A stretch of 64,000 bases of DNA from contig JAKLGJ010000002.1 in assembly GCA_022710715.1 (NCBI GenBank), positions 501,453 to 565,452 on the forward strand, given 5' to 3'. The notes beneath the pieces were generated by a model that was not told the DNA's origin, searched no databases, and saw only the letters and a program-made list of their open reading frames with translations. Source of the DNA: Candidatus Omnitrophota bacterium. GTDB taxonomy: Bacteria; Omnitrophota; Gorgyraeia; Gygaellales; Profunditerraquicolaceae. Of this stretch, positions 31,271 through 64,000 are shown one piece after another (the stretch's first letter is position 1; each line of letters opens with the position of its first letter). A program made the translations under genes and the position numbers.

Positions 31271-31368
31271 ACGGCCGGTAGATCAATGATGTTCAAGGAA
31301 GCCACGGTTCTGGATTGAGCGATCAGTCGAGCACCGTGGCTTTCTGCTCTGTGGAGAGGCGTGTGATC

Positions 31369-47464: not shown

Positions 47465-47492
47465 TTGCATAATCTATCAAATATGATAAAAT
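47465..47492 (+). promoter_or_regulatory. promoter-like TTGCAT-16-TAAAAT in AT-rich divergent intergenic region
   Basis: 220-nt region of about 30% GC between divergent cheR-like and pilin genes. Confidence 0.3.
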
Positions 47493-47529
47493 ATGACAAA
47501 TATTATTAAGGTATATCAGGAGCTTCCAG

Positions 47530-48183: not shown

Positions 48184-48184
48184 A

Positions 48185-48661
48185 ATGCGCAAGAGCGGGT
48201 TTACCTTAATCGAACTGGTGGTGATTATCGTGGTGGTAGCTATCGCCATCCCGGCATTGTTGAATACCTGGGCGGGCATTTCCTGGCGTTCCATGAATTC
48301 GGAATTTATTGCCGATGCCGATATATACCTGCGGGAGTTGATGGAAGAGATCAAGGTCAAACGTTTCGACGAAGTCACGTCCCGGCCATGGACTGCGTCG
48401 AGCCTTTTCGCCTCCGGGCGCAGCGATGAAACCGAAGAGATCAATAACCGGACAAAGTTTGACGATATCGACGATTACAACGGATACGTCGATTCCACGG
48501 GCGGTTTTAACCGCAGCGTCGGCGTCAGCTATGTCAATCTGACCGGTTCAAACTGGCAGGATGTGGCCGGTCCGACGGATTTTAAGCGCGTCCGGGTATC
48601 TGTTGACCGCGCGCGAAATGCGATCAGCGTTTCCACGGCTACTATTATAAGCGGGTATTAG
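48185..48661 (+). CDS. type IV pseudopilin (GspI/PilV-like)
   Basis: canonical class III leader MRKSG|FTLIEL. Confidence 0.75.
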   Translation: MRKSGFTLIELVVIIVVVAIAIPALLNTWAGISWRSMNSEFIADADIYLRELMEEIKVKRFDEVTSRPWTASSLFASGRSDETEEINNRTKFDDIDDYNGYVDSTGGFNRSVGVSYVNLTGSNWQDVAGPTDFKRVRVSVDRARNAISVSTATIISGY

Positions 48662-48662
48662 C

Positions 48663-49163
48663 ATGCAGAAGCATTCAACGCGCCGCAGAGGCGTTACGTT
48701 AATCGAGCTGGTAGTCGTTATCGTGCTGGTGGGGATTCTGACCGGCCTGGGCAGCCTGTATTTAAAAGAGGTGATCGACCTGTGGAATTTTGTTTCTTTC
48801 CGCAGCGAAGCGGTGAGCACCACGCGGGTTGCGGTGACGCGGATGCTGCGTCAAATGCGCCAGGTGCGTAACGACACGTCCGTTACGTTCGCCAACGCCA
48901 CCCGGTTTCAGTTCACGGACAGGAGCGGCGCCGTGGTGAATTTCAATCTTTCCGGGACAACCTTGTTATGCAATAACAATATCCTGGCCGAAGGGGTCAG
49001 GAATCTTTCCTTTACGTACATGGATAACAGCGGTACATTGTTGCTCAATCCGGCAGTCAGTCCGCTGGCAACGAATATTCGGCTCATTCGTATCGGGCTT
49101 ACGGTGCAGGCCGGCACGCAAAGCAAAACGATCAGCGTGCAGGTTGCTCCGCGAAATCTGTGA
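48663..49163 (+). CDS. type IV pseudopilin (GspJ/PilW-like)
   Basis: MQKHSTRRRG|VTLIEL. Confidence 0.7.
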   Translation: MQKHSTRRRGVTLIELVVVIVLVGILTGLGSLYLKEVIDLWNFVSFRSEAVSTTRVAVTRMLRQMRQVRNDTSVTFANATRFQFTDRSGAVVNFNLSGTTLLCNNNILAEGVRNLSFTYMDNSGTLLLNPAVSPLATNIRLIRIGLTVQAGTQSKTISVQVAPRNL

Positions 49164-49176
49164 GGCAGGAGGTGGC

Positions 49177-50814
49177 GTGCGCATAAACCGGTGGAAAGAA
49201 ACATTGCGCAGTGAGCGCGGCGTTAGCCTGATCGTGGTTATTTTCGTGATCATGCTCCTGGGGGTTATGGGGTGGGCTTTGATGTCCATGCAGAGCGTGG
49301 ATTTCGAGATGAGCTGGCGTAATCTCGATTCCGAGCGGGCGCTGGATGTGGCGGAATCCGGATTGCAGGAAGCGCTTAACCGCATCTCCACCGGTTCCGC
49401 TGAATTCAATAACGATACCAAAGTGCTCAATCGCACCCTGGAGAGCGGCCAGTATGTCGTCACCCGTACTACCGTCAATTCCAACATCAGCGTGCTTTCC
49501 ACCGGTTATGTGCCGGCGCAGGCGAATTACCGTGCGATGCGTCAGCTGGGCATGTTGATTACCAGCGCCAGACTGGATAAAGTCGTTCAGGCGCATAATC
49601 GTTTCAATTGGACCGACATTTCCGGTTCCTCGAGTTTCAACGGCACCATCCAGGCGGCCTGGTATAACGGTGACGACGTGCTTCCGGATAATCAACAATC
49701 CTCGGATATCACCCCCATTCCCCGCACCGGCAGTTCGCCGGCGCCGGTAATCGGGGCTACTCCGTATCCGCGCATCGATATGGCCGGGTATCAGCAGGAA
49801 GCCGCGAGCAGCGGCACGGTCTGGACTCCGCCGCGCACCGGGGTGATCAGCTCTAAAACGGATCTGGGGACAGGGAAAACCCAGCTTGTGTTCACTCCGG
49901 CGGATATGTTTAAAAGCCCGCACGCTCAATTTGAAGGCCAGGCGCTGCGCAATATCTCCCGCGGCCATTGGGATGCTTCATATGCCGCTTTGGCCCCGGT
50001 GACCAGCAATGTCGGGAATCAGAGGGCGGACGTGGATACCATCAGGGTAAACGGTTGGCAGGTCGGCGACAGGGTCATGCTTATTCCGGCGATAGCTCCG
50101 GCGGGAGGCAGCGGTCATCAGACCTTGACCCATAATAATACGCAGAAAACCATCGCTTTTCACCTGGATTGCGAATATGATAATCTGGCGGTAGGGGACG
50201 CGGTGCGTAACCTGGACCGGGCAAATGACAGCTGGTCGTATGATCAATGGGGGACAGTGACTTTCGTCGAAGTCAAGAACAGGCTGACCAACATCACGGT
50301 GAGAGTGGATAGTTCGGTCAATCTTACCCTCGCCGCAAACCAGTGGCAGGTCGGAGATCTGATCTGCGCGGCGAAGTTGTATGATGATACGTGGACCGTC
50401 GATCAGAATATTGTCTACGTGCAGGCGGATACGGTATTCAATGTGGCGAGCTTCATCAATGCTTTTTCCGGCACCAGTATTATCAGCGAGGGTGATATCG
50501 GTATTAAAGGTACGGGGATGATGCTTTTTTCCCAACGGCCGGATCCGTACCCTGCGCTGGCCACCAAGAACGGCAACATTTCTTCCCCGGATCTGCCTAA
50601 CTGGATTTTGCGCTTATTGGGGCTGGGCAGGGTGTTCGATACCCTGATCTATTCGGAAACCGGGGATATTTTCTTTACTTTTCTCTACGGCACTGCGGTA
50701 GTCGGCAACAATGTCACCCTGGTCGATAAATCCGTGGTGAGATACAACGCGGTTATCGCGCAAGCGCCGCATTTTATCATGGATATGATAGCGCAGGACT
50801 GGCAGGATGAATAA
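49177..50814 (+). CDS. GspK/PilX-like large minor pseudopilin
   Basis: GGCAGGAGGTGG RBS, GTG start; ERGVSLIVVIFVIMLLGVMG GspK-like N-terminus; 545 aa. Confidence 0.6.
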   Translation: MRINRWKETLRSERGVSLIVVIFVIMLLGVMGWALMSMQSVDFEMSWRNLDSERALDVAESGLQEALNRISTGSAEFNNDTKVLNRTLESGQYVVTRTTVNSNISVLSTGYVPAQANYRAMRQLGMLITSARLDKVVQAHNRFNWTDISGSSSFNGTIQAAWYNGDDVLPDNQQSSDITPIPRTGSSPAPVIGATPYPRIDMAGYQQEAASSGTVWTPPRTGVISSKTDLGTGKTQLVFTPADMFKSPHAQFEGQALRNISRGHWDASYAALAPVTSNVGNQRADVDTIRVNGWQVGDRVMLIPAIAPAGGSGHQTLTHNNTQKTIAFHLDCEYDNLAVGDAVRNLDRANDSWSYDQWGTVTFVEVKNRLTNITVRVDSSVNLTLAANQWQVGDLICAAKLYDDTWTVDQNIVYVQADTVFNVASFINAFSGTSIISEGDIGIKGTGMMLFSQRPDPYPALATKNGNISSPDLPNWILRLLGLGRVFDTLIYSETGDIFFTFLYGTAVVGNNVTLVDKSVVRYNAVIAQAPHFIMDMIAQDWQDE

Positions 50815-50839
50815 ACGTCGTTTATGCATGGGGGGAGCA

Positions 50840-51109
50840 ATGAATAAAAAACTGATCGTGGGATTTCTTCTCGCTCTGGGTATAGTGGGCATGGCGGGAT
50901 TCCGGCTCTATGCCCAGCGTCTACCCAGCCAGGATGCGGCTGCGGCGATGCAGAGTCTGGGAGGATTGGAGGGCTCTTTTTCTTCGCTCCGGAGCAGCCT
51001 GGATAAGAGCACAAAAGAGCTTTCCCAGAAACTGGACCAGGTGCTTGCGAATCAACAGGCGATTTTGAAAGAACTGGAAGTCGTAAAAGTAAGAGCGTCA
51101 AGGAAATAG
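50840..51109 (+). CDS. small membrane-anchored coiled-coil protein
   Basis: GGGGGAG RBS; 89 aa; start uncertain (alternatives 50807/50828). Confidence 0.35.
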   Translation: MNKKLIVGFLLALGIVGMAGFRLYAQRLPSQDAAAAMQSLGGLEGSFSSLRSSLDKSTKELSQKLDQVLANQQAILKELEVVKVRASRK

Positions 51110-51134
51110 CGTTTACCGGGGGAGACGAATTCCC

Positions 51135-51162
51135 TTGACAGTTAAGCATACATCGGTAGAAT
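51135..51162 (+). promoter_or_regulatory. internal promoter TTGACA-16-TAGAAT upstream of pilM-like gene
   Basis: ttgaca 51135-51140; tagaat 51157-51162. Confidence 0.4.
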
Positions 51163-51169
51163 TGAGACA

Positions 51170-52963
51170 ATGGTCAATCCTGCGGTGACAGAAAAAAACA
51201 AAGTTCCGGCAAAAGCTCCAGCGGCGGCTTCCGGTCCATCGCCGTTTGCCGGCATCGGCTCTATTCTCTACCGCTTTTTCACCGCGGACCAGCATCTCAT
51301 CGGCCTCGATATCGGCTCCAGCTACCTCAAACTGCTCCAGTTGCATCAGGTCAAGGACGGTTATCAGATCAAGCATTATATTGCCCGGGCAATCCCGCCG
51401 AACATCAGGGACAATGCCGCCGAAAAACGCAAATTTATCGGAGAGTTCATCAAAGAGTTCTTGAGCGAAGCCCGGGTAAAACGCTGCCATGGCCGGCTTT
51501 CTTTGTCCGGCAAGGGAGTGTTCGTTTTCTTTCTGAACGTGCCGAATCTCAATAAGAAGGATCTGCGCGGAGCCGTGGGGATCGAATTAAAGAAACGGCT
51601 TCCTTTCCAGCTCGATATCAATAATGTCAGTTTTGATTATTACATCAACGGCCAGGCCAAAGACGAAAAAACCGTCAGCCTTCAGGTGACCTGTATCGCC
51701 GTGGATCGATTTACCATAGACGACCAGGTTCAATTCCTCAAAGATATCGGGATTCAACCGGCGGCGATCAACGCGGTATCCGACGTGCTGGGTAATCTGA
51801 TGGCGTGTTGTTTCAGCGCTCCGGCGGATAAAACGCTGGCATTGCTCGATATCGGGGCAAGTACGGCGTTATTGAATTTTTACAAAGGCAAAAACCTGAT
51901 TTTTTCGCGGGAGATCCCTATCGGGGGCGATCATCTGACGCACGCGCTGGCAAAAGCCATTACCACTTCCGCCGGGCCGGTAACTATCGGCGTGGAGGAT
52001 GCCGAAAAGATAAAGCGCAATTGCGGCATTCCCATGGCCGAAGACGCGCATTCGGAATTCCTGACGGACTTCGGGCCATTGCCCGCAGAACAATTACTGG
52101 CGTTGCTGCGTCCGTTGCTGGAGAGGCTGGTGTTGGAGATCTCGCGCACGCTGACTTATTACGCCAAGACCTATAAAACCCCGGCGATCGAGGAGCTGTA
52201 TATCACCGGCGGGACATCCCGGTTGAAGAATCTGGACAAATTCCTGCAGTTCAATCTGGAAGGCGTCAAGCGGGTAGAACATTTGAATATTCTCAAAATC
52301 GTCAAAGGCTGGGCGGACAAAGGCATCCTGAAGCAGGAATTGATGATGGAACAGGCGGCGCCGCATCTGGCGGTGGCGTTCGGGCTCTGCCTGGGAGCCG
52401 CCGGCAAGGTGAATCTCATTCCGCCGAAAGAACGCCTGGAGCAGAAACTCGCGCTGATCGTTACGCTGCTGCGGGTCGCCTTTCCGCTGATCCTGGTGAT
52501 CAGTATCGGTTTCTATATATCCACCTACGCCAATGCATTGAAAATGAAGGTTGCGGTGAGCAGGGTGGCGGGCGAGATCAACAGCATGGAAGGCACCGCT
52601 TCCCAGGTCCGTCAGTATATGGAATTGAAGGGGAAGCTCGATCAGGGCAAGGGGTTGCTCAACCAGGCTAAAGGCAGGCAGCCGCTATGGCAGGGAGTGC
52701 TCAAGGAATTGAGCGCGCTCACTCCCCAGGAGATCGTGCTGACGAAAGTATTCGTCGAGCAAACCAAGGACGGCAAGGATCTGCATCTGATCGGGCGGGC
52801 TTCCAGCAGGTATACCATCGTGGATCTGGTTATGACCCAGTACATCGACGCTCTGGAGGAATCGCCGTTTTTCAGCGACGTGCGGGAGCTCTCCCGGAAA
52901 AAAGACATGTACGATCCGGTGCCGTCGGCGGATTTCGAACTGGTCTGCAGAATGGATTATTGA
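51170..52963 (+). CDS. pilM: PilM (actin-like ATPase) fused to PilN-like TM/periplasmic domain
   Basis: LIGLDIGSSYLKL PilM N-terminus; about aa 400 TM helix then PilN-like coiled region; 597 aa. Confidence 0.7.
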   Translation: MVNPAVTEKNKVPAKAPAAASGPSPFAGIGSILYRFFTADQHLIGLDIGSSYLKLLQLHQVKDGYQIKHYIARAIPPNIRDNAAEKRKFIGEFIKEFLSEARVKRCHGRLSLSGKGVFVFFLNVPNLNKKDLRGAVGIELKKRLPFQLDINNVSFDYYINGQAKDEKTVSLQVTCIAVDRFTIDDQVQFLKDIGIQPAAINAVSDVLGNLMACCFSAPADKTLALLDIGASTALLNFYKGKNLIFSREIPIGGDHLTHALAKAITTSAGPVTIGVEDAEKIKRNCGIPMAEDAHSEFLTDFGPLPAEQLLALLRPLLERLVLEISRTLTYYAKTYKTPAIEELYITGGTSRLKNLDKFLQFNLEGVKRVEHLNILKIVKGWADKGILKQELMMEQAAPHLAVAFGLCLGAAGKVNLIPPKERLEQKLALIVTLLRVAFPLILVISIGFYISTYANALKMKVAVSRVAGEINSMEGTASQVRQYMELKGKLDQGKGLLNQAKGRQPLWQGVLKELSALTPQEIVLTKVFVEQTKDGKDLHLIGRASSRYTIVDLVMTQYIDALEESPFFSDVRELSRKKDMYDPVPSADFELVCRMDY

Positions 52964-52964
52964 T

Positions 52965-53567
52965 ATGCCCAGGAAATTCAGCAACGTAACCTATATCTTC
53001 GTCTACACCGTATCCGGGATCGCGGTCCTGACGGCGGCGTTCCTGCTCGTCGGCCGGCCGAGCCTGCAGTATCTCAAACGGCAGAAGGCGGATTTCGATG
53101 CCCAGCAGCAGTTGTTGTCCCATTCGGAGCAGCTTATCCGCAGCGTGCCGAATCCGCAGAAGGAGATCGTCGACATACAGCAGAAAATCGAAGAATTCCG
53201 CAAAACGGGAGTGGGCGGCAAGCAACTGCCCCGGATTATTCAACTCTTGAGCCAGTCGGCTGCCGGCAGGGATATCGTGATTATCAGCATCGGCCCCCGG
53301 GAAGATATGCGGGCCTCGCAGGAGAATCTTCCCGCCGGAGTGAATAAAGTCTATATCGAGATGATCTTTACCTGTTCGTTCAAAACGCTGGGGGAATATA
53401 TCAAGGCTTTGACCGAGCTGCCCGGCGTTTTCAGCATCGAAAGCATCGCCGTGGAAAAGGTGCCCTTGCAGCTGTTGTCCCAGAAAGACGCTGCGCGGGT
53501 CGCCGCATCGTCACGCGATCTACAGGTTGATCTGATCATCAGCACGTTCACTATCTATGAGCTGTAA
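52965..53567 (+). CDS. pilO: PilO-like pilus assembly protein
   Basis: single N-terminal TM, coiled coil, gene order after PilM/N. Confidence 0.55.
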   Translation: MPRKFSNVTYIFVYTVSGIAVLTAAFLLVGRPSLQYLKRQKADFDAQQQLLSHSEQLIRSVPNPQKEIVDIQQKIEEFRKTGVGGKQLPRIIQLLSQSAAGRDIVIISIGPREDMRASQENLPAGVNKVYIEMIFTCSFKTLGEYIKALTELPGVFSIESIAVEKVPLQLLSQKDAARVAASSRDLQVDLIISTFTIYEL

Positions 53568-54074
53568 ATGACCAAAAAAGAACAAACCCAGTTAATGATT
53601 ATCGGCGGCGGCGTGTTGATCCTGGCGCTGATTCTGCCGGGAAGCCTCAAGAAGTCGCTGCGCGGCGGCCGTCCGCCCGCTCCCGCCGCGGTTTCAGAAC
53701 CCCTGGCGGTGGATACTGCGCCGGCCGCACCGTTCTTTACCGACGCTGCCCCGGGCAGCGAACAGATCATCGGCGAGCAGCTGAAACGCATTGAAATGCC
53801 CTGGAGCAGGGATCCGTTTACCGTTACCTACGATGCGCGCGACGGATTGCGGGAATTCCAGCTGAAGGGTATTTCATTCGGGACCGATAAAAGCGGTTTC
53901 GCTTACATCAACGAACAGATTGTGAAGAAGGGGGATCTCCTCGGCGACTACGAGGTGGTCGAGATCGAAAAAAACAGAGTATTATTGAAGAGGGGGCAGC
54001 AAAGCTTCTACCTGACCTTTCCCGATGATGGAATAAATAGCGCGTCCGGTAACCCGGCTGCGAAGACGAGGTGA
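53568..54074 (+). CDS. pilP: PilP-like protein
   Basis: TM anchor, Pro/Ala linker, C-terminal beta domain; precedes secretin. Confidence 0.5.
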   Translation: MTKKEQTQLMIIGGGVLILALILPGSLKKSLRGGRPPAPAAVSEPLAVDTAPAAPFFTDAAPGSEQIIGEQLKRIEMPWSRDPFTVTYDARDGLREFQLKGISFGTDKSGFAYINEQIVKKGDLLGDYEVVEIEKNRVLLKRGQQSFYLTFPDDGINSASGNPAAKTR

Positions 54075-54077
54075 CGA

Positions 54078-55481
54078 ATGAAAGTCCGCATGGCGATTCT
54101 ACTGATGATGGCAGGGATGTGGGCGTTGCTTTCTCCGGCGGCGACCGTGTCCGCCCAGGAGCAGCCCAAGAGCGAGATAATCGAATACCTGGAGTTCCGG
54201 GAAGTGGATATCAAGGATGTTCTGCGCCAGTTGTCCAAACAGTATAACCTGAATATCGTTTTCTCGGAGTCGGTCCGGGGACTGGTCACCGTGCAGTTGA
54301 ACAAGGTCAGCGTTGAGCAGGCGCTGGATTCGATCATCACGGTGAACGGATTCGCCTATACCAAAAAAGACAATGTGTTCAAGATCACCACCCAGGAAGA
54401 GGCGGCGCGCGAGGGCAAGCAGACCAAGTTGTTCCGATTGCGCAATGCGGACGCGGCTAAACTCAAAGACACCCTGTCCAAGGTCTTGAGCCCCGACGGG
54501 TCGATCGAAGCGGATGCCCGGTCGAATTCTATCGTGGTCACGGATTCGCTGACGGTGATCAATAAGATCGAGCGGATGATCCCCTCGCTGGATGAGGTGA
54601 CGTCCCAGGTGCTCATCGAAGCGAAATTGATCGAAACCTCGCTGACCAATACCGAAAAACTGGGCATCGATTGGCAGACGACGATACGCGCTTCCGGTTC
54701 AAAACGGCCGACCACGCTGCCGTTCTTGAGCGGGAAAAGCAGTGTGAACGAAAAACTCCTCTCCGAAAACGATACGACGGACTTTCCCACCGCGCATGGA
54801 TTCCCGTATTCGGCCGCCGATGATTTTACCCTGGGCACGCTGGATTTTACCGGATTGAGCGTGGTGCTGGATTTTCTGAAGTCGCGCACCAACACCAAGC
54901 TGGTGGCTTCGCCGCGCATTGTGACGTTGAATAACCAGCAGGCGACGATCAATGTCGGCAAAGTGGTGCCCCTGGCGCTCTATGAACGCAATGAGACCAC
55001 CGGCGCCTGGGAAGTTACCGGGTGGGAGGAGATGAACGTGGGGGTCAATCTGCAGGTCACCCCGCAGATCAGCCCGGACGGTCATATCAAATTGAAACTC
55101 AAGCCCGAGGTGAGCAATATTATCGATTATATCGGCGAAGACGTTAACCGCCGGCCGATCACCTCTACCCGTACCGCGGAGACCGAAGTGATCATCAATG
55201 ACGGAATGACCGTGGTTATCGCCGGGCTGGTTAAGGAAAAGGACTCTTTGACCACGAACAAGATACCGATACTCGGCGATATCCCGTTTATCGGTGCGTT
55301 CTTCACCCGCAAGGAAACCGGCACCGATGAGGAGCCCAAAGAGCGCACGGATCTGTTGATTTTTGTCACCGCCAGAATACTCAAGGATAATCAGGACGTT
55401 GGCGTCGCCGCGGATACCGCAGGGACGAGCGCCTATGCGCGTCCTTTCAAAACGGAGATCAGGGAGAAAAATGCGCAATGA
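54078..55481 (+). CDS. pilQ: secretin (PilQ/GspD family)
   Basis: signal peptide; N0/N1-like domains; C-terminal secretin motif VIINDGMTVVIAGL...IPILGDIPFIGAFF. Confidence 0.9.
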   Translation: MKVRMAILLMMAGMWALLSPAATVSAQEQPKSEIIEYLEFREVDIKDVLRQLSKQYNLNIVFSESVRGLVTVQLNKVSVEQALDSIITVNGFAYTKKDNVFKITTQEEAAREGKQTKLFRLRNADAAKLKDTLSKVLSPDGSIEADARSNSIVVTDSLTVINKIERMIPSLDEVTSQVLIEAKLIETSLTNTEKLGIDWQTTIRASGSKRPTTLPFLSGKSSVNEKLLSENDTTDFPTAHGFPYSAADDFTLGTLDFTGLSVVLDFLKSRTNTKLVASPRIVTLNNQQATINVGKVVPLALYERNETTGAWEVTGWEEMNVGVNLQVTPQISPDGHIKLKLKPEVSNIIDYIGEDVNRRPITSTRTAETEVIINDGMTVVIAGLVKEKDSLTTNKIPILGDIPFIGAFFTRKETGTDEEPKERTDLLIFVTARILKDNQDVGVAADTAGTSAYARPFKTEIREKNAQ

Positions 55482-56622
55482 AAAAATCGGGATAGTGCTG
55501 ATCAGCATCGCTATCGTCGGAATAGTGACGATTTATTACCAGGCTTCGTTGCGCAAGATGCAGCGGGTTACCGTTACGCAGAGCGCTTCTCAAGAGCGCG
55601 CGATCGCGGACTTGCAGAGCGAAATGGCCGCGTTCGCTCAAGCGCAGGCGGAACTGAAAAAGGCGTTATCCACGGCTGAAGGGGCGCTGCAGCAGGAGCG
55701 CACGACAACGTTCGATCTGCAGCAGAAACTGGCCCGGAGCATCGGGGAGAATAAACTGTTGAGTCGTAAGATCGCCGCCGCGGTGAAAGACACCGCCAGG
55801 ATTCCCGGTCTCGAGCAGCAGATCGAAAACGCGGCCCGGGGCGCAGAAACGCTGAAGCAGGAAGTGGATACGGTCCGGCATAATTTCGAACTGGTGCAGT
55901 CCGTACGGGCGCGTATCAGCGAGATCGAGCGCAGCCTCGCCGACCTGCGTTTAAAGCCCGGCAAGGAGGAAGTGATCAAGGTCCGTCTTGAGGGTATGAC
56001 TGCGGAATTAGGCAAGATGAACCAGTATCTGGCCGGTTTGCGCGAAGCCAGATCTCCCGTAACGGCGGCGCCTTCCGTTCAGTCGCCGGCGCCGGTCAAT
56101 CTGGAACGGGAAAAGGTCAGCCTTAACGACGAGCTGAAGTTCCGCGAGGAGATACAGTATTTGAAGAATCAGTCGGAAACGGTCGCTAAAGACAACGCCG
56201 TTCTCAAAGAGAAATACCGCCTGGCCCAGGATCTGCTCAATCAGAACAAAGCCGATCTGTCCGGCAAGGAGGAAAGGATATTCTCTTTACAGTCGCGCCT
56301 GATCGAAATGGAGAGCCATGTCAACGAGCTGCAGCGCCGCTATGAGCAGCTGGAAAAGGATGCGGTTTCCCTTAAAGAAAAATACATCGCCAGCGAGCTG
56401 GAAAAGGAAGACGTGCGCAGCAGGCTCGCCCAGACTACCGCGGAGTTGAACGAAGTGCGCAAGAAATTCGTGGATATGCTGGGAAAGATCTCCAGTGTTT
56501 TTAAAGGGACGGAAGAGGCGCAGCACAACGGCGCTGCCGTTTCCCCGCCGGGTAATGCCACCGGAGGACAGGGCAAGGTGGCGGTCGAATTGATCCCGCA
56601 GCAACCCCGGAGCGCTCCATGA
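55471..56622 (+). CDS. membrane-anchored long coiled-coil protein
   Basis: AGGGAG RBS; N-terminal TM then about 340 aa of heptad-rich sequence. Confidence 0.5.
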   Translation: MRNEKIGIVLISIAIVGIVTIYYQASLRKMQRVTVTQSASQERAIADLQSEMAAFAQAQAELKKALSTAEGALQQERTTTFDLQQKLARSIGENKLLSRKIAAAVKDTARIPGLEQQIENAARGAETLKQEVDTVRHNFELVQSVRARISEIERSLADLRLKPGKEEVIKVRLEGMTAELGKMNQYLAGLREARSPVTAAPSVQSPAPVNLEREKVSLNDELKFREEIQYLKNQSETVAKDNAVLKEKYRLAQDLLNQNKADLSGKEERIFSLQSRLIEMESHVNELQRRYEQLEKDAVSLKEKYIASELEKEDVRSRLAQTTAELNEVRKKFVDMLGKISSVFKGTEEAQHNGAAVSPPGNATGGQGKVAVELIPQQPRSAP

Positions 56623-57215
56623 GCACGATAGTTTCCGGTACGATGATTCTGCTGTGTGTCTTGTACGCGCTGGCTGTGCCGCGCGCATCTTTTGCCGGGC
56701 GGAGCCCGGTCGCCGAGCAGGTCGATGCGTCGTCGGTCCGGCAGGAGAAGATCAAAAAAGCCAGAGAATTCTATGCCCAGGGGCAGAAATTCCTGCGGGA
56801 AGGCAATTATTCTGCAGCCAACGAGGCCTTCGGCAAAGCCGAGCTGGTGCTGGGGCGCGAAGCGCCCGCGCAACTTTATGAAGCGCCGCCGGCGCCGGCC
56901 GATGCCGCTGCGGCGGAGCGGATAATCCCGCTGCCGGTTCAGGACCCGTCTTTTTATTACAATGCGGGAGTGGAGGCTTTGAAGAAAGGCGCATATAAAC
57001 AGGCGGAGGAAGCTTTCAGGAAATCGTTGAGTTTCGATCCGCAGGATAAAGACGCCTGTTATAATCTTGCCGTGCTGTATGAGAATTATCTGGGCAACAA
57101 GCGCGAAGCGCTCAAATATTACCTGCGTTACGTAAACCTGGCGCCTGAAGCTCCGGACGCGGCGCAGGTCAGGTCATGGATCGATCAGCTCAATACCGAG
57201 GTGTCCGCGGAATGA
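56619..57215 (+). CDS. secreted TPR-repeat protein
   Basis: signal peptide; TPR repeats. Confidence 0.6.
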   Translation: MSTIVSGTMILLCVLYALAVPRASFAGRSPVAEQVDASSVRQEKIKKAREFYAQGQKFLREGNYSAANEAFGKAELVLGREAPAQLYEAPPAPADAAAAERIIPLPVQDPSFYYNAGVEALKKGAYKQAEEAFRKSLSFDPQDKDACYNLAVLYENYLGNKREALKYYLRYVNLAPEAPDAAQVRSWIDQLNTEVSAE

Positions 57216-59020
57216 ACGATTACGATCTCGAACAGCTGTTGTTGAACGAAGATCTGATTACGCCGGAGCAGCTGGAGAAGGCTAAAGAGGAGATGCAGCG
57301 GATGAAACGGCCGCTGGAGCAGGTGCTGGTCGACGCCAAGATCATGCCGCGCGCCGTGCTCTACGGAGCGATCGCCAAAAGCCAGGGGTTCAATTACGCG
57401 AATCTCTCCGGTCTCAAAGCCAACGATGAACTGACCAAGCTTATTCCCGAAGAGCTGGCGCATAAAACCCAGTCGGTGCCTTTCAAGATCGAGAATGACA
57501 CGCTGCATATCGCCCTGGTCGATCCGGCGGACCTGTCGGCCATAGACCAGCTGCAGATGCAGGCCGGTATGTCCCTGGAACTGTACCTTTCGTCTCCCAA
57601 GGAGATCGACGAGGCGCGCGGGGCGATCTACGCCAAGCAGCAGAGCGCCGAAAGTCTTTTGTCCGAGTTGAGCGCCGAGCCGCGTTCGGATACCAAGCCG
57701 GTTTCCGAAGGCGCCAACATCATCAAAATCGTGGATCTGATCATTACCCAGGCAGTGCGCGACCGGGCTTCCGATATCCATATCGAGCCGGAGCAGGAAT
57801 TGTTGCGCATCCGCTTCCGGATCGACGGGATACTCCACGAAATTCCTTCTCCGCCGAAAGAATGGGAGTCGCCGATCATTTCCCGCGTCAAAGTGCTTGC
57901 CGGCATGGATATCGCGGAAAGCCGCGTCCCGCAGGACGGTCATTTTCAGTCCAAGATCGAAGATAAAGTGATCGATTTCCGCGTCTCCACGCTGCCGACC
58001 ATTTACGGCGAGAACGTGGTTATGCGTTTGCTGGATACCGCTTCAGTGATGATCGGGCTGGAGAAACTTGGTTTCGCTCACGATGACCTGGTCAGATATG
58101 AAGAGCTTATTTCCCGACCGTACGGTATTATCCTCTCTACCGGCCCTACGGGAAGCGGCAAGACCACCACGCTGTACTCGGCTTTGATGCGCATCAATAC
58201 CATCGATCGCAACATTATTACCATCGAAGACCCGGTGGAATATCGACTGGGCCTGATCCGTCAGATCCAGGTCAATCCCAAAGCCGGCATTACCTTTGCG
58301 GGAGGGTTACGGGCTATCCTGCGCCAGGATCCGGATGTGATCATGGTCGGAGAGATCAGAGACATGGAGACGGGGATTACCGCCATTCAGTCGGCTCTGA
58401 CCGGCCATCTGGTATTTTCCACCCTGCACACCAACGACGCGCCGTCTTCGGTCACCCGTCTGGCGAACATGGGCGTGGAGCCGTTTTTGATCTCCGCGGC
58501 GTTGATCGGGGTTATGGCGCAGCGCCTGGTCAGGACGATCTGTCCGAATTGCCGCGAGCCGTACGAGCCTACCAAAGGAGTGATGAAAAAGTGGGGGTTG
58601 GAAGGCCGTAAGGATGTAGCGCTTTATCGAGGGAAAGGCTGCGATTTCTGCAAGGGCACAGGTTTCCGCGGCCGCACCGGATTATATGAATTGATGATCT
58701 GCGACGATGAGATCCGGGAGATGATTCTGACCAATACCTCGCAGGTGGTCCTGCGACAGAAAGCCCGCGAAAAAGGCATGAAAACCTTGAGTGACGACGG
58801 AGTGGTTAAAGCGCTGCAGGGGATTACGACGCTGGAAGAAGTTGCGCGCGTCTGCGAGGAACATATCGAACTCAAAGCCGTTCCTGCCGCGGAGTTGAAA
58901 CCGGTGGCTCCGGCTGCGCAGCCGCTGCCCCGCGCTGCTGCCCCGAAGGTGCAGGTTAATACGGCGCAGATGGAAGAATATCAGAAACGTATCGGAAACT
59001 GGCTGGGAGGTAAACAATAA
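57212..59020 (+). CDS. pilB: PilB/GspE-type assembly ATPase with N-terminal MshEN/T2SSE_N domain
   Basis: Walker A GPTGSGKTT, Asp box, His box, tetracysteine CPNC..CDFC; ATGA overlap with upstream gene. Confidence 0.9.
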   Translation: MNDYDLEQLLLNEDLITPEQLEKAKEEMQRMKRPLEQVLVDAKIMPRAVLYGAIAKSQGFNYANLSGLKANDELTKLIPEELAHKTQSVPFKIENDTLHIALVDPADLSAIDQLQMQAGMSLELYLSSPKEIDEARGAIYAKQQSAESLLSELSAEPRSDTKPVSEGANIIKIVDLIITQAVRDRASDIHIEPEQELLRIRFRIDGILHEIPSPPKEWESPIISRVKVLAGMDIAESRVPQDGHFQSKIEDKVIDFRVSTLPTIYGENVVMRLLDTASVMIGLEKLGFAHDDLVRYEELISRPYGIILSTGPTGSGKTTTLYSALMRINTIDRNIITIEDPVEYRLGLIRQIQVNPKAGITFAGGLRAILRQDPDVIMVGEIRDMETGITAIQSALTGHLVFSTLHTNDAPSSVTRLANMGVEPFLISAALIGVMAQRLVRTICPNCREPYEPTKGVMKKWGLEGRKDVALYRGKGCDFCKGTGFRGRTGLYELMICDDEIREMILTNTSQVVLRQKAREKGMKTLSDDGVVKALQGITTLEEVARVCEEHIELKAVPAAELKPVAPAAQPLPRAAAPKVQVNTAQMEEYQKRIGNWLGGKQ

Positions 59021-59026
59021 TTCATT

Positions 59027-60295
59027 ATGCCGGTATATGCCTATAAAGCAGTAGACAATAAAGGACAGGCGGTCAAAGGCGAGATGCAGGCGGATAACGA
59101 GATCGCGCTTACTACCGAACTGGCAAAGCTGGGGTATTTGCCGATCGGCATCGAAATGCTGGCCGAGAAAAAAGAAAGCGGTAATTCTTTAACCCGGATA
59201 TTTTCCGGCGGCAATAAGGTTAATTTCCAGGAACTGGTTATTTTTACCCGGCAGTTTTCCACCATCATCAAAGCTGCGGTCCCGATCATCGAAGGCTTGC
59301 GGGTTCTGGCTACGCAGTCGGAAGACCCGGTCCTGAAAGACGCGTTGTTCAAGATCATCCATGATGTCGAATCCGGCATCAGTTTGTCCAAAGCGATGAC
59401 CAAGCATCCCAATGTTTTTTCCGAACTCTATGTCAATACCGTGATCGCCGGAGAAAGCGCGGGGATCCTGGATAAGGTGTTGATCAAGCTTTCCCAGATG
59501 CTGGAAGAGGATCAGGAGACCCGGCAGAATATTATGACCGCTCTGCGTTATCCCATCATGGTGGTTATCGCTTTGATAGCGGCAGTGGTGGTGCTTTCAG
59601 TGGCGGTCATCCCGCAGTTCGCCAAGATCTACTCGGATGCGAAAGTGGCACTGCCGCTTCCCACCCAGGTGATGATCGTGATCAGCAATATCATCCTGGG
59701 CCCGTGGGCCAAGAGCCCCATCCTCGGGCTGAAAATCCTCTGGTTTGTGCTGCTGGCCGGCGGAGCCGGCGGTTTGTATTTTTTATTTCAGTTCGCGATT
59801 AACACCAAACAGGGCAGGTGGTACTGGGACGGTTTGAAGTTCCGTTTACCGGTGGTGAGCAAAGTATATATCAAGATCACCATGCTGCGTTTCGTCTCCA
59901 TGCTCAACGTTTTGTATCAATCCGGGCTGCCGGTGCTGCATACGCTGGATATCGTCAGCTCGACTATCGGCAATGTAGTGCTGGCCAGAGAGATCGATAA
60001 GATAAAGCGCGATGTGGCCGACGGCAAAGGTATATCCGGAGGCATACTCAACAGCCCGCTGTTTCCCCGCCTGGTCGGGTATATGGTTTCGATCGGCGAG
60101 AAATCCGGCGCATTGACCATAATGCTGGATTCGTTGTACGATTTTTATTATCTGGAAGTCAAGACTACGGTGAAGAATCTGACCACCATGATCGAACCGA
60201 TCATGACTTCGGTCCTGGGCGGAGTGGTCATGGGAATGGCGCTGGCGATCTTCCTGCCCATGTGGAAGATGATACAGGTAATCAAGCAGAGTTGA
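59027..60295 (+). CDS. pilC: PilC/GspF-type inner-membrane platform protein
   Basis: 422 aa, duplicated T2SSF domains. Confidence 0.85.
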   Translation: MPVYAYKAVDNKGQAVKGEMQADNEIALTTELAKLGYLPIGIEMLAEKKESGNSLTRIFSGGNKVNFQELVIFTRQFSTIIKAAVPIIEGLRVLATQSEDPVLKDALFKIIHDVESGISLSKAMTKHPNVFSELYVNTVIAGESAGILDKVLIKLSQMLEEDQETRQNIMTALRYPIMVVIALIAAVVVLSVAVIPQFAKIYSDAKVALPLPTQVMIVISNIILGPWAKSPILGLKILWFVLLAGGAGGLYFLFQFAINTKQGRWYWDGLKFRLPVVSKVYIKITMLRFVSMLNVLYQSGLPVLHTLDIVSSTIGNVVLAREIDKIKRDVADGKGISGGILNSPLFPRLVGYMVSIGEKSGALTIMLDSLYDFYYLEVKTTVKNLTTMIEPIMTSVLGGVVMGMALAIFLPMWKMIQVIKQS

Positions 60296-60296
60296 T

Positions 60297-61142
60297 ATGG
60301 ACGATATAGAGAAGCTCCTGGTCGAACGGGGATTGATCAACCCGGAAACGCTTGATCTGGCGCGACTGGAAGCCGCGAAGAACGGATATTCTGTATGGCT
60401 GTCTTTAGTCAAACTGGGGTATCTTACGGAAACGCAATTAATGGTTTTCTTCGCCCAGGAGAGCGGCATCGCCTATATCAACCTTTCCGATTACCGGATT
60501 GCGCCGGAGGTTCTTCATCTCCTGGACGAGCATTTTTGCCGTCAGAATACGGTCATTCCTGTATGCAAGATCAATGACCTGTTGTATCTTGCCTGCAGCA
60601 ATCCGCTGGATCCCGCGCTTGTTGACGCTGCCGGTAAACATTGCGGATTGAGCGTGGAACCGCTTTTTGCGACCACCGCCGCGATCACTGCGGCGCTTGA
60701 TTATTACTGGAGACTCAACGAGAGGAATTTTTCCGCCGGACAGTTCATTTCCCGGAAGAATCCCCTGAAAGGGGTGGGGTTCTGGAGGGAGTCCGAACGG
60801 TTATTCCTTTCTTTGCCGGTTACCGTGGCGGTCCGCGACCAGGGTATCGCTCTGGCTCCGGCGCAGCAACTTAAGGCGCAAGCCCAGGATATTTCGCAGA
60901 ACGCTAAGGCAATCGGCATTGCCTGTCCGGTATTCTTGCCCAGGGGGGTAAGTCTTTTCATGGAATTTGACGGTTTGAAAAGACCCGGGGCCAGGCAAGA
61001 GGAATTTTGCGCAACCGGAGAAATAATTCGTTGTTTTATGCTCAAAGAACGGGATTATTTTCTGGGTGTGACCCTGGGCGAGCTTGATCCCGTTCTAAGG
61101 CAACGTCTTTTGGAAAAAGCCTTTACGCGAAATACGGCTTGA
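60297..61142 (+). CDS. stand-alone MshEN/T2SSE_N-like domain protein with unknown C-terminal domain
   Basis: N-terminal LVERGLINPETLDLARLEA..LVKLGYLTETQL resembles GspE N-domain. Confidence 0.5.
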   Translation: MDDIEKLLVERGLINPETLDLARLEAAKNGYSVWLSLVKLGYLTETQLMVFFAQESGIAYINLSDYRIAPEVLHLLDEHFCRQNTVIPVCKINDLLYLACSNPLDPALVDAAGKHCGLSVEPLFATTAAITAALDYYWRLNERNFSAGQFISRKNPLKGVGFWRESERLFLSLPVTVAVRDQGIALAPAQQLKAQAQDISQNAKAIGIACPVFLPRGVSLFMEFDGLKRPGARQEEFCATGEIIRCFMLKERDYFLGVTLGELDPVLRQRLLEKAFTRNTA

Positions 61143-61167
61143 CAATTACTATCAGGTATCATAGAAT
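61139..61167 (+). promoter_or_regulatory. sigma70-type promoter TTGACA-17-TAGAAT
   Basis: ttgaca 61139-61144 overlaps upstream stop; tagaat 61162-61167; AT-rich. Confidence 0.5.
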
Positions 61168-61236
61168 ATCATCAAATAGTATTAAGCGTATTTAGGATAA
61201 CTTTTACCAACCCAACTCAAGGCGGTGTGGAAAGAC

Positions 61237-61428
61237 ATGAGCCTCAAAATTTTTACAGCTCAAGAAGTTGCGCAGATGTTGGGGATCTCGAAGCAGACGC
61301 TTTTTCGGTATGAAAAGAAAGGCATTTTCCCTAAGGCTAAGCGCCATCTGATTAACCAGTGGCGCCAATATACCGAAGAAGATATTAAGAAGCTGAAGAG
61401 TATCCTGGGGATAGGTGTTATTCGTTAG
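61237..61428 (+). CDS. stand-alone MerR-type HTH protein, paralog of the HTH fused to the pseudopilin at 47530
   Basis: MSLKIFTAQEVAQMLGISKQTLFRYEKKGIFPKAKRHLINQWRQYTEEDIKKLKSILG, about 65% identical to aa 1-55 of the 47530 protein; ORF may start at GTG 61225. Confidence 0.65.
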   Translation: MSLKIFTAQEVAQMLGISKQTLFRYEKKGIFPKAKRHLINQWRQYTEEDIKKLKSILGIGVIR

Positions 61429-61452: not shown

Positions 61453-62082
61453 ATGAAGATGAAGAAAGACGTAGATATCAAACAAATGCTTATCATTATC
61501 GGCGGTATTGCGCTCACCATCGCCTGTATAGCTTATGCGGCCTGGCCTTTTATACGGGACCGCATGGAGAGCAGTAAAATGGCTCAAGCTAACCGGGAGT
61601 GGGAGGCAAAAGAGAAGGCCGCAGGCAGGTCCGGACTGGGTGGGTTGCAGGTAGTCATTCCCGGTTCGTCCGCAGTTGTTCCTGCACCGGTAGATCCTGC
61701 CGCCCCAACGCCGGCAGAGCCGCCGGGCGTTGAGCCGTCCGCCGCGTCACAATCTCCGGCGCAACCTGTGCAGGAAGCGAAACCCGTTCCGGAAACCGCT
61801 CCGCTGGTGCCGGAAGCACCCAATCCTTTTTTGACTAAAGAAGAGCGGGAGATCATCAAAAAGCGGGGTATACTGCCGGTACTGGATTATTTGACGGTAA
61901 ACGCGATTATTGTCTCGCCGTCCGGAAGTCAGGCGGTTATTGACGGCCGGATCCTGCGCGAGGGAGATATTATAGACGGCAAGCAGATAGTCCGGATCGA
62001 ACCGGAGCAGGTCATCTGCAAGGATTCGTTCAGGGAATATATGATCAGGATCGGGAACGTAGTGAAAGAACCGGAAGAATGA
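61453..62082 (+). CDS. PilP/GspC-like protein (TM anchor, Pro-rich linker, C-terminal beta domain)
   Basis: AIIVSPSGSQAVIDGRILREGDIIDGKQIVRIEPEQVIC C-terminal domain. Confidence 0.45.
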   Translation: MKMKKDVDIKQMLIIIGGIALTIACIAYAAWPFIRDRMESSKMAQANREWEAKEKAAGRSGLGGLQVVIPGSSAVVPAPVDPAAPTPAEPPGVEPSAASQSPAQPVQEAKPVPETAPLVPEAPNPFLTKEEREIIKKRGILPVLDYLTVNAIIVSPSGSQAVIDGRILREGDIIDGKQIVRIEPEQVICKDSFREYMIRIGNVVKEPEE

Positions 62083-64000
62083 CGCGAATACCGTGGCAGG
62101 ATAGAAGTGGGGTCCGGCTGGCAGGCGCGCTGGTTTGCCTGTTGTTATTGACCGGATGGGAAAGAGTCGATCTCGGCGAGTTTCTGGCGCAGCAGAAAGC
62201 GCAGCAGGCTGCGCCTGGCGGGCAGGCGGAGACAGCGGAGAATCTGACGCCCTATCGGATTTTAGAGAAGATGACCTATGCCTACTCTTCCCTGGAATCG
62301 GTCGACGTCAATCTGGAAGTCTGGATAGAGAATCCCCTCTTGCATATGAAAATAGATTCGATTAATTATATTCATAACGTGGACGATTATAAGAGTGATG
62401 GAAAAGTAAGCGTGTCATTGTTGCTTCCCTACAGCGCGTCTACGTCCCGGTGGGTGCAGACCTATAACTGGAAAGGTATTCCGTTTACCTGGGATTGGGA
62501 AGAACGGGAGTGGAAAACCGAAGAGCTGGAAATTTCCGACAAGCAGCTTAATCGCGCGCTGGCTTACGGGCTTTTTCACAGCCTTTTTACGGTTAAAACG
62601 GACAATGTGGATCTGGAAACGATACGTTTTCTGGGGATCGAGAAGCGGCGGAATAAGGATTGTTATGTCTTGCAGTATGACCAGGATCCCAGGATGTTCA
62701 AACGCTGGGAAACGGTGGGTTCGATCAACACAAAGTTATGGATAGATAAGGAAACGTTCCTGCCGGTGATCATGCGCGCCGAGGGTTCGATCAGCGACGT
62801 GTACTTGCTGCAGCAGGTGGAGTATTCGCATTATAACGCTTCGCCGGAATTGGTCCTGCCTCTGGCGGTGGTGGAAAAAGTGAAACAGGAGCGGGCGATC
62901 CTGGAGAAGAAAGCGTTGCGGTTCCCTGCAGAGATCGGCGCTATCCGCGGTTGGCAGGCGCCGGATACCATCCCGTTTACCTATCTGGACCGGGTGCAGG
63001 TGAAAAAAGATATGGAACGGCTCTTTGACCAGGAATATACGCCGGAAAAGCTGCAGCAGGAGGAATTCATTTTTAAATGGCTGGGACTGTTGCACAAGGA
63101 CGCTGATTACAGGATAAGCGCGATCAATTCCGAGATCGACGGGATAGCGGCATATTACGATCCTGCCGGCAAGCGTATCGTGATGGGGGATTGGCTGCAT
63201 CCCATGTTCGCAGAGGCGGTGCTGGTGCATGAGATGACGCATTATCTGCAGGACGCTTTATTCGATACGGAAAACTACCGCAAGAAAGCTGAACTCAAGA
63301 ACAATGAGGACGCGATGATGGCTTACCGCGCCGTCCTGGAAGGCGAAGCGACTGCGGTGATGCTGGAATATTTGCTCAAGAAAGACAAGAAGGATTTTAA
63401 ATCCCTGCCCGACGTTGCCGGCCAGATCGAAAAAGACCTTTTGCGCGAGGAAGCGTTCACCCGCGATAATGTTTATTATAATCTGTACACGTACGGGACG
63501 GCTTTTATGCAGGCGTGCCTGCGGTCGCATGACTGGAAGTGGCTCGACGAGCTGTATAAGGCCCCGCCGCTTTCCATGAGGCAGATTTTGCACGCGTCGG
63601 ATTATATCGACGCGGAACGGCTGCCGACGACTGCCGCTGCGCTGCGGGTACCGGTGTTGCCGCCGGGATGGCAGACGATCTATTCCAACCGTCTGGGAGA
63701 ATTCCTGATCGACCAGTCTTTGCGTCAGTTTTTGAGCCGCGATCGGGCGGAAGATTGCGCCCAGGGGTGGAAGGACGATACGCTCTGCGCGCACGTGAAT
63801 GCCGCAGGAGCTCGGTGCGTCACTTTCTGGACGAAATGGGACAGCCAGGAGGACGCCGAAGAATTTTTCAAGGGATACGCCGATTGGTTGCGTAAAAAAT
63901 TCGCCGCAGCGCAATTCGAGGATAAGCCCGGATATGTCTGCGCGGCGCTCGAAGACAATGAGTTCTTTTTTTGCAGCCGGGATGCGGATGTAGTGTGCAT
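62079..64000 (+). CDS. HExxH-motif (HEMTH) putative metallopeptidase-like protein, 3'-truncated by window end
   Basis: read manually: ATG 62079 (ATGA overlap), no in-frame stop to 64000 (over 640 aa); absent from ORF track because no stop; N-terminal TM; LVHEMTHYLQD at about 63220. Confidence 0.55.
   Translation, partial: MTRIPWQDRSGVRLAGALVCLLLLTGWERVDLGEFLAQQKAQQAAPGGQAETAENLTPYRILEKMTYAYSSLESVDVNLEVWIENPLLHMKIDSINYIHNVDDYKSDGKVSVSLLLPYSASTSRWVQTYNWKGIPFTWDWEEREWKTEELEISDKQLNRALAYGLFHSLFTVKTDNVDLETIRFLGIEKRRNKDCYVLQYDQDPRMFKRWETVGSINTKLWIDKETFLPVIMRAEGSISDVYLLQQVEYSHYNASPELVLPLAVVEKVKQERAILEKKALRFPAEIGAIRGWQAPDTIPFTYLDRVQVKKDMERLFDQEYTPEKLQQEEFIFKWLGLLHKDADYRISAINSEIDGIAAYYDPAGKRIVMGDWLHPMFAEAVLVHEMTHYLQDALFDTENYRKKAELKNNEDAMMAYRAVLEGEATAVMLEYLLKKDKKDFKSLPDVAGQIEKDLLREEAFTRDNVYYNLYTYGTAFMQACLRSHDWKWLDELYKAPPLSMRQILHASDYIDAERLPTTAAALRVPVLPPGWQTIYSNRLGEFLIDQSLRQFLSRDRAEDCAQGWKDDTLCAHVNAAGARCVTFWTKWDSQEDAEEFFKGYADWLRKKFAAAQFEDKPGYVCAALEDNEFFFCSRDADVVC

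Follow-up and report, generated by a model that had tools for sequence, protein, structure and literature searches.

The 64,000-nucleotide stretch of the Candidatus Omnitrophota contig JAKLGJ010000002.1 analysed here (positions 501,453 to 565,452; hereafter the window) encodes two related helix-turn-helix (HTH) domains. One is a free, minimal MerR-type winged HTH protein of 63 amino acids (aa), encoded at 61237..61428 on the + strand; the other forms the leader of a 217-aa prepilin, encoded at 47530..48183 on the same strand. Each gene is preceded by an operator-like array of 10-bp direct repeats at its promoter. We favor, as somewhat probable, a model in which this minimal BldC-like MerR domain binds the repeats head-to-tail and represses its own transcription, and in which the fused form is a leader that prepilin peptidase would release. 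Homology, fold, family distribution, synteny, and the repeats with their position are observed; that the domain binds DNA, that it represses and does not activate, and that the leader is cut off and set free is inferred.

The free and fused HTH proteins

The free gene begins with an ATG, the same start that is chosen in public gene calls on an identical contig, and comprises 64 codons counting the stop. An earlier note, made from the sequence of the window alone, had identified the correct open reading frame (ORF) but gave its product one residue too many (64 aa). The note had also placed its identity to the HTH of the 47530 gene product at about 65%. The homology is clear, but the figure is 61%: an ungapped BLASTP alignment, which spans the first 58 residues of the free protein and the first 56 of the fused one, has 34/56 identical residues and 88% positives (E 1e-26), far beyond chance. 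With Pfam, the free protein scores 39.5 bits for MerR_1 (cut-off 21.6; E 6e-10) and 33.6 for MerR (cut-off 28.2), and the winged HTH of the fused protein (residues 1-57; 47530-47700, + strand) scores 40.7 (E 2.6e-10) and 29.9, both above the gathering score. The two proteins belong to the MerR family at the level of the HTH domain. The free copy also exceeds the cut-off for HTH_17 (32.1 bits versus 27), whereas the fused copy falls below the gathering score for this model.

The AlphaFold model of the free protein (predicted local distance difference test score, pLDDT, 84.5) consists of strand, helix, helix, wing, strand, and helix, and it stops after this third helix (residues 47-57). Sequence length, a family alignment of 61 profile positions, and the model all indicate that the protein has neither a dimerization helix nor an effector domain; it consequently lacks the architecture of a full MerR regulator, which has a coiled-coil dimerization helix and a C-terminal effector region. 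In Foldseek searches the model superposes on the N-terminal domains of MerR proteins. The best chains of matching size are BldC (template modelling score, TM, 0.70-0.75; root-mean-square deviation 1.9-2.2 A; 27-29% identity), RacA, and the RdfS excisionase (8DGL; TM 0.62), each of which, judging partly from the titles of the Protein Data Bank (PDB) entries, was solved with DNA or oligomerizes on DNA. Database entries for Candidatus Omnitrophota include an identical 63-aa protein, and many free homologues, including orthologues at the same position in other species, are 72-81% identical to the free HTH. The names given in public annotation are simply "MerR family transcriptional regulator" or "prepilin-type cleavage/methylation domain protein". 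The C-terminus of the free protein, ...SILGIGVIR, is the counterpart of the ...ILGRG end of the fused leader. Overall, the free gene looks like an ordinary small regulator, apart from an unusual putative operator; its fused sister is the surprising part.

The fused gene, whose product is defined by Pfam, NCBIfam, AlphaFold, and a family alignment, starts at a GTG seven bases past an AGGAG ribosome-binding site (47518-47522). Residues 57-78 of the protein contain the N_methyl motif of prepilins, with a match to TIGR02532 as well. The mature part gives weak matches to the GspH (TIGR01708), ComGD, and GspG models, and PF12019 is precomputed for many of the homologues. In the AlphaFold model (pLDDT 88.4) a winged HTH at residues 1-44 is followed by a single continuous helix, which begins at residue 45, crosses the cleavage site, and enters the membrane segment, and then by a pilin head. 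Foldseek matches this head to FimU (4IPU), EpsH (2QV8/4dq9), XcpH (9A1F), and GspH (2knq), with TM to the target of 0.63-0.73. As modelled, the mature part has a GspH/FimU-type fold, and except for its leader the fusion partner is a genuine GspH/FimU-type prepilin.

Prepilin leaders end in Gly or Ala, sit in the cytoplasm, and are cut there, and pilin assembly requires this prior cleavage (PMC10191384). In the fused protein of the window, a prepilin-peptidase site, ...GRA/FTLIE (the slash marks the cut), is predicted between 47703 and 47704 on the + strand, with Glu+5 at 47716-47718; the junction reads GRA/FTLIELIMVMVII. The family consensus at the junction, ...ILGR-G/FTLIELVMV, is a canonical prepilin-peptidase site, and the 24 fused proteins that were aligned have Gly (23) or Ala (one) at position -1 and, without exception, Glu at +5. 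The fused protein therefore has the Gly/Ala end, the hydrophobic stretch of about 20 residues, and the Glu+5 that mark a class III signal peptide, but in place of a short hydrophilic leader it has a folded MerR winged HTH of 57-58 residues. This leader is basic (14 Lys/Arg versus 7 Asp/Glu) and should therefore remain in the cytoplasm. Since no alternative start (ATG, GTG, or TTG) is present near the junction, the pilin can be made only with the HTH leader, and an internal start that would give a normal short-leader pilin is ruled out. An assembly or frameshift artefact is likewise ruled out, because the fusion is in frame in about 50 independent clusters and a 97%-identical contig shares the junction.

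Within the fused family, mean pairwise identity is 0.66 for the HTH, 0.64 for the signal peptide/membrane helix, and 0.45 for the pilin head. The invariant columns of the 24 proteins all lie in the HTH (L13, I15-T19, R22-K25, G27, P30, R34, I37, N38, W40, R41, Y43, and D47). Two fused homologues, P0036 and P0047, carry an insert of 13-17 residues that duplicates the cleavage motif (...ILRKGFTPLEK...SSLTGFTILEM...). They have two tandem candidate peptidase sites, the first without a hydrophobic stretch, and this tandem motif may be a relic of how the fusion originated.

Promoters and tandem repeats

The free HTH gene has a sigma-70-type promoter at 61139..61167 on the + strand. As the earlier note had read it, this promoter consists of TTGACA (-35; 61139-61144), a 17-nt spacer, and TAGAAT (-10; 61162-61167), with 11/12 matches to consensus; the TTGACA and the -10 box occur at the same place in orthologous free-HTH loci. 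The MshEN-domain gene upstream ends within the -35 element, where its TGA stop codon lies (61140-61142). No terminator-like site is seen between that gene and the free HTH gene, which may also be transcribed by read-through from the operon upstream. The promoter of the fused gene (47465..47492, + strand), read from the sequence and from nine orthologous promoters, has a -35 TTGCAT (47465-47470), a 16-nt spacer, and an extended -10 TGaTAAAAT (47484-47492). The cTTG and TAAAAT columns are invariant across the nine. (The -35 is weak, with 3/6 matches, so this promoter is absent from the list of a simple promoter scan.)

Five tandem 10-bp direct repeats form an operator-like array at the free promoter (61148..61197, + strand): ACTATCAGGT, ATCATAGAAT, ATCATCAAAT, AGTATTAAGC, and GTATTTAGGA. 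This array, which is defined by periodicity and matrix analyses and by the alignment of orthologues, covers the spacer, the -10 box, and the likely region of the transcription start. The corresponding array upstream of the fused gene (47473..47521, + strand) consists of TCTATCAAAT, TATGATAAAA, TATGACAAAT, ATTATTAAGG, and TATATCAGGA. It is the top array of the window, and ACAAATA..TATTAAG.TATATCAGG is nearly invariant in orthologous fused-gene promoters. The two promoters of the window were compared by periodicity and matrix analyses; a MAFFT alignment put them out of register. Across species, the orthologous promoters of fused and free genes alike have cTTGaca and TAAAAT, followed directly by [A/T]CAAATA-gTATTAAg-nTATATCAgg, and units above threshold often begin at 0, +10, and +20 after the -10 box.

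The periodicity is pronounced in the regions upstream of 52 HTH genes. Exact self-matches of 5-mers at a shift of 10 bp number 138 when 13.4 are expected (z = 26), with echoes at 20 bp (z = 5.4) and 30 bp (z = 7.4), and the words TAGTAT, CAAATA, GTATCA, and TCAAAT are enriched on one strand only. The unit is approximately wrTATCArrn; it is direct and strand-specific, and it occurs in three to five tandem copies. When four-unit arrays were scored on either strand of the 64 kb with a position weight matrix, the two highest were 47492-47531 (16.4) and 61148-61187 (15.9), with the next at 8.1; the two top arrays of the window coincide with the two HTH promoters. In a split-half test, in which the matrix was trained on half of the loci and applied in 200-bp bins to the other half, the fused-promoter array ranks first of 638 bins. 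Among all loci, the 200 bp upstream of the HTH gene are the top bin of the whole locus in 34/52 cases and one of the top three in 39/52; as most loci have one to two hundred bins, chance alone would put this bin first in well under one case. Thus, within loci of up to about 20 kb, the arrays follow the HTH genes specifically. A palindromic operator in a 19-20-nt spacer, as is typical for MerR, is not found here: the spacer is 17 nt, and the repeats are direct with a 10-bp period.

A family tied to type IV filament operons

With one genome taken per species, a scan turned up 10 fused loci and about 60 free homologues (58-75 aa). Almost all are labelled Omnitrophota, and some bins bear other labels. 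Many of the free homologues terminate exactly at ...ILGR[G/I/V/L], the equivalent of the fused cleavage point. When the proteins of the window were used as tblastn probes, genes related to type IV filaments or type II secretion systems (T2SS) were found on the same strand within 5 kb downstream of the free HTH in 54/56 informative loci (those in which the downstream sequence is long enough). Three gene orders are seen repeatedly: HTH, GspC-like, (HExxH), secretin, and ATPase, as in the window; HTH and PilM-like, with two secretins further along; and HTH, PilB, and PilC, with a secretin further along. In many species the free HTH comes after an MshEN-domain gene, and the order HTH then GspC-like is repeated in L011, L013, L028, L052, and L059. 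Together with the operator-like arrays at both promoters, this distribution upholds the proposal of the earlier note that the HTHs are a regulator family dedicated to pilus loci.

Five loci (L012, L016, L025, L032, and L035) have tandem duplicates of the free HTH gene (60-64 aa each; identical copies in L032), which stand at the head of clusters with GspC-like, secretin, and ATPase genes in that order. The closest relatives of the window's free HTH in the neighbour-joining tree, L045:2516-2704 and L057:9971-10168, also follow an MshEN gene; neither a promoter nor a repeat array of their own is recognizable, and in L045 no recognizable pilus gene is present in the 10 kb downstream. These two loci are exceptions to the rule that the free HTH heads an operon.

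The earlier note correctly placed a PilP/GspC-like gene and a large HExxH protein downstream of the free HTH. Of the structural genes there, the first (61453..62082, + strand) encodes a GspC/PilP-like membrane protein, which matches CdsD_C (6.5e-7) and, weakly, T2SSB and GspC_delta. The next, at 62079..64000 on the + strand, encodes a DUF8575 protein with a HEMTH (HExxH) motif; as the ORF translation and the identical contig show, it is cut by the end of the window and is 667 aa at full length. This contig, a 914-kb European Nucleotide Archive entry (ERZ27257456, k141_570614), matches the window at 12,764/12,764 overlapping bases and extends beyond it. The gene order that it gives after the free HTH is GspC-like, DUF8575, a secretin in two ORFs, an ATPase, and a pilin. 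The ATPase is a second MshEN+T2SSE protein, of 556 aa, and the pilin is of the PilW_C type. The earlier note had seen two parts of one pilus locus here, the second of them headed by the free HTH; instead, the free HTH heads a separate type IV filament/T2SS-like machine with its own secretin, ATPase, and pilin. The two secretin ORFs (L072:12848-15082) encode the N-terminal domains (311 aa) and the secretin domain (430 aa). In many related loci PilQ gives a double tblastn match, as it does at the split secretin, and the split may be genuine.

The fusion is widespread as well. A search with the 217-aa protein retrieved 53 clusters, about 50 of them full-length (208-230 aa), with identities of 41-97%; they carry MerR plus N_methyl and/or GspH Pfam domains, and those that bear a name are called Omnitrophota/Omnitrophica. 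Three further contigs (L003/L052, L006/L011, and L001/L057) have a fused copy and, about 14 kb downstream of it, a free one. The fused HTHs group into a single clade in a neighbour-joining tree (no bootstrap), and the sister group of this clade is the free HTHs in the position between MshEN and GspC genes. The earlier note had spoken of duplicated HTH modules and a recent fusion, and the two paralogues of the window are indeed only 13.7 kb apart, 61% identical, and provided with similar promoters. However, the fusion recurs with the same synteny in ten species representatives, the pair itself recurs, the free copy resembles its orthologues (up to 81% identical) more than its fused paralogue, and the fused copies are one clade. 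A recent duplication and fusion within this genome is thus hardly credible; both events are ancient.

Most close relatives of the pilin part, in a search of 1.84 billion cluster representatives, are unfused GspH-like pilins. One protein, P0185 (L075:513-1157, on a contig of 1.2 kb), has a different, unrelated HTH domain, of the excisionase-type HTH_17 kind, before the ...RRDKG/LTLIEV of a GspH-like prepilin; it is apparently an independent HTH-prepilin fusion of the same design, which hints that the arrangement arose more than once. In P0151 the HTH is decayed, and in the orthologous loci L077 and L078 the synteny of CheR and pilin is kept while the HTH is absent. P0152 was dismissed, as its upstream ORF is not an HTH. 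In L077 (4614-4979) and L078 (2779-3144) a 121-aa PF05635 (23S_rRNA_IVP) gene directly follows the GspH-like pilin gene; in the window, unlike in these two loci, no such gene is present after the pilin gene.

A model and its alternatives

In the favored model, several HTH monomers would sit side by side, head-to-tail, on three to five 10-bp repeats one helical turn apart, and the multimer would occupy one face of the DNA. In a near-consensus sigma-70 promoter, these repeats extend over the spacer, the -10 box, and the region where transcription is likely to start, so that binding would autorepress the operon that runs from the HTH through the GspC-like, DUF8575/HExxH, secretin, ATPase, and pilin genes. 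Autorepression is the most economical reading, because the repeats lie over the -10 box and the start region of a promoter that is close to consensus and optimally spaced; with 11/12 matches and a 17-nt spacer, such a promoter needs no activator. The positions predicted to contact DNA are invariant across free and fused copies, and the arrays are alike at both promoters. Cross-regulation of the two machines is therefore likely, and the two paralogues probably recognize both sites.

The fused HTH would be held at the membrane as a cytoplasmic leader until the peptidase cuts after Ala/Gly(-1), and the cut would free a fragment almost equal in extent to the free HTH proteins. To judge from the junction, cleavage of the fused precursor is plausible. 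We advance more tentatively, and with rather less than even confidence, the idea that the pilin leader acts as a transcription factor, such that each processed priming pilin would deliver one repressor to the repeats of both operons. If this is true, pilin maturation would feed back on transcription directly and stoichiometrically.

The same promoters can be read differently. MerR-family proteins are classically activators, and the HTH might switch the pilus operons on by remodelling or recruiting RNA polymerase as MerR does. The MerR-family DNA-binding domain, the placement of some units of the window within the -35/-10 spacer (61148-61161), where MerR proteins bind, and the weak -35 of the fused promoter are consistent with this. 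However, activation by MerR corrects over-long spacers of 19-20 nt, and the free promoter, at 17 nt, is not over-long; in addition, the repeats are direct rather than palindromic, and the array is conserved across species directly after the -10 box, over the likely start region. We regard activation as unlikely. It is more improbable still that the repeats are an intrinsic feature of the promoter (a phased bend or an UP-like element) or an RNA element of the 5' untranslated region (UTR), with the HTHs acting elsewhere, as architectural or Xis-like proteins. A 10-bp phasing is typical of bent DNA, the repeats of several species lie within the predicted 5' UTR, and the free protein both exceeds the threshold of the excisionase-type HTH_17 model and resembles RdfS and RacA in fold. 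Yet the TATCA core is specific and strand-oriented, beyond what plain A-tracts would give, and the arrays track the HTH genes. An RNA element is rejected, since the 5' UTRs give no Rfam match and their predicted folds are no more stable than those of shuffled sequences (z +0.86 and +0.75). The mobile-element or excisionase reading is rejected as well: the gene products examined in the window and on the identical contig include no match to an integrase or mobile-element family, and the pilus neighbours are conserved in related loci (which were compared only with the pilus proteins of the window).

For the fused protein, it has to be asked whether the HTH is ever released. If it is not, the uncleaved precursor would be a membrane-anchored regulator like ToxR or CadC, with a periplasmic sensor of pilin fold, and the predicted topology is exactly of this type. 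We know of no prepilin peptidase that accepts a leader of such size, or a folded one. Furthermore, the window copy has Ala rather than Gly at -1; because this Ala recurs in an independent 97%-identical contig and in a 62%-identical relative, it is not a sequencing error. On the other hand, Gly or Ala at -1 and Glu at +5 are kept in 24/24 family members, the GspH/FimU fold and the first-gene place in a minor-pilin set suggest assembly, which requires cleavage, and free homologues stop at the position equivalent to the cut. Permanent tethering therefore seems to us improbable, to about the same degree as activation.

Besides the Ala at -1 and the size and folding of the leader, several points weigh against the model of a repressor that is released from its pilin. 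Because MerR-family proteins are classically activators, repression is argued only from the position of the repeats. The repeats are assigned as a putative operator of the HTH family by co-occurrence alone. The matrix was seeded on TATCA, several units of the window are degenerate (TATTA, TGACA, and CATAG), one of 20 whole-window shuffles scored 17.5, as high as the real arrays, and the array score is not outstanding in 13/52 upstream regions. At the fused promoter, the last unit shares bases with the ribosome-binding site, and some of its conservation could come from this. No prepilin peptidase gene is found among the larger ORFs of the 64-kb window. Finally, BldC was not retrieved when a profile of 46 family members was searched against PDB sequences with E up to 1 (the search returned MerR N-terminal domains, CarA/CarH, and RacA), and its repeat unit, which we read from PMC5859096 as AATTxxxx(C) of about 9 bp, differs from the 10-bp wrTATCArrn.

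Other genes of the window

The first machine extends from the HTH-pilin gene to an MshEN-domain gene (47530-61142). After the fused gene, domain matches and synteny in L001-L010 define the rest of the first type IV pilus operon (48167..60295, + strand). It encodes two minor pilins, a 556-aa PilX-like protein, PilM-PilN, PilO, and a PilP-like protein, and then a secretin, a coiled-coil protein, a TPR protein, a PilB-type ATPase, and a PilC-type platform protein. The last gene (60297..61142, + strand) encodes, by domain matches, a 281-aa MshEN-domain protein. No major pilin gene is found among the larger ORFs of the 64-kb window. Two tandem ComFB-CheR_N-CheR methyltransferase genes (45102-46187 and 46213-47307, - strand; domain matches) diverge from the fused gene and are kept beside it in L001, L002, L007, L008, and L010.

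MshEN is, by its NCBIfam name, a domain that binds cyclic di-GMP (c-di-GMP), and a stand-alone copy of it ends the pilus operon. Of two response regulator genes in the window (13290-14429, - strand, and 24928-26151, + strand), one has an EAL and one a GGDEF domain. This suggests second-messenger (c-di-GMP) control of pili alongside the HTH. Elsewhere, two adjacent ORFs are both far larger than normal enzymes: a 1414-aa ORF (27026-31270, + strand) matches enolase C- and N-domains in unusual order and position, and a 1675-aa ORF (31315-36342, + strand) has a PPDK_N and an alpha-glucan-water-dikinase phosphohistidine-like domain.

Implications and comparison with known systems

Omnitrophota are uncultured and mostly ultra-small, and type IV pili are thought to underlie their attachment to hosts or prey; a survey of the phylum names type IVa pili merely as a common trait (PMC10066038). 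The HTH family provides a concrete candidate regulator-operator pair for at least three kinds of pilus/secretion cluster in these bacteria. If the model is correct, the BldC mode of binding would extend to a distant phylum, where it would serve a new function on a different repeat. Should the fused form be cleaved, the prepilin leader, usually treated as discarded, would gain a regulatory function, and prepilin peptidase would be a signalling protease. Either result would be relevant to the fields of type IV filaments and of membrane-tethered transcription factors. In the searched literature (open-access papers only), neither an HTH-prepilin fusion nor a regulatory pilin leader is described, and no BldC-type domain fused to a prepilin was found.

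The fused protein invites comparison with two kinds of membrane protein. It shares with the minor (pseudo)pilins GspH, FimU, EpsH, and XcpH the class III signal peptide, the fold, and the place as first gene of a minor-pilin set, but those proteins have a short hydrophilic leader rather than a folded DNA-binding domain of 57-58 residues. ToxR and CadC are membrane-anchored one-component regulators, and other tethered factors are freed by regulated membrane proteolysis. The uncleaved fused precursor would resemble ToxR and CadC in having a cytoplasmic winged HTH, one membrane helix, and a periplasmic domain; however, their HTH is of the OmpR type, not the MerR type, and a pilin here takes the place of the sensor. 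Unlike for other tethered factors, the protease would be the housekeeping prepilin peptidase.

The HTH itself has relatives of three kinds. Classical MerR regulators (MerR, CueR, BmrR, and HiNmlR) have a homologous N-terminal DNA-binding domain (E 6e-7 to 1e-5 in the PDB profile search), but they also have a dimerization helix, a sensor domain, a palindrome, and a 19-20-nt spacer, all of which are missing for the free HTH. Excisionases, or recombination directionality factors (Xis, RdfS, and AlpA; HTH_17), are small winged HTHs of the same superfold that multimerize on direct repeats, whereas the free HTH occupies a conserved chromosomal position inside pilus loci in about 60 species. The closest parallel is BldC of Streptomyces (PDB 6AMA and 6AMK), a monomeric, domain-only MerR relative of 68 residues that binds variable numbers of direct repeats head-to-tail (PMC5859096). 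Like the 63-aa free protein, BldC consists of only a MerR-like winged HTH, and the folds superpose; tandem direct repeats in variable number are present at the family's own promoters, where they would be bound in a similar way. BldC, however, is a global developmental regulator, whereas the Omnitrophota family is tied to type IV filament operons and is probably autoregulatory. As the likeness is one of fold and architecture and there is no profile match, membership in the BldC family by sequence is rejected; by this analogy, the HTH family is best described as BldC-like.

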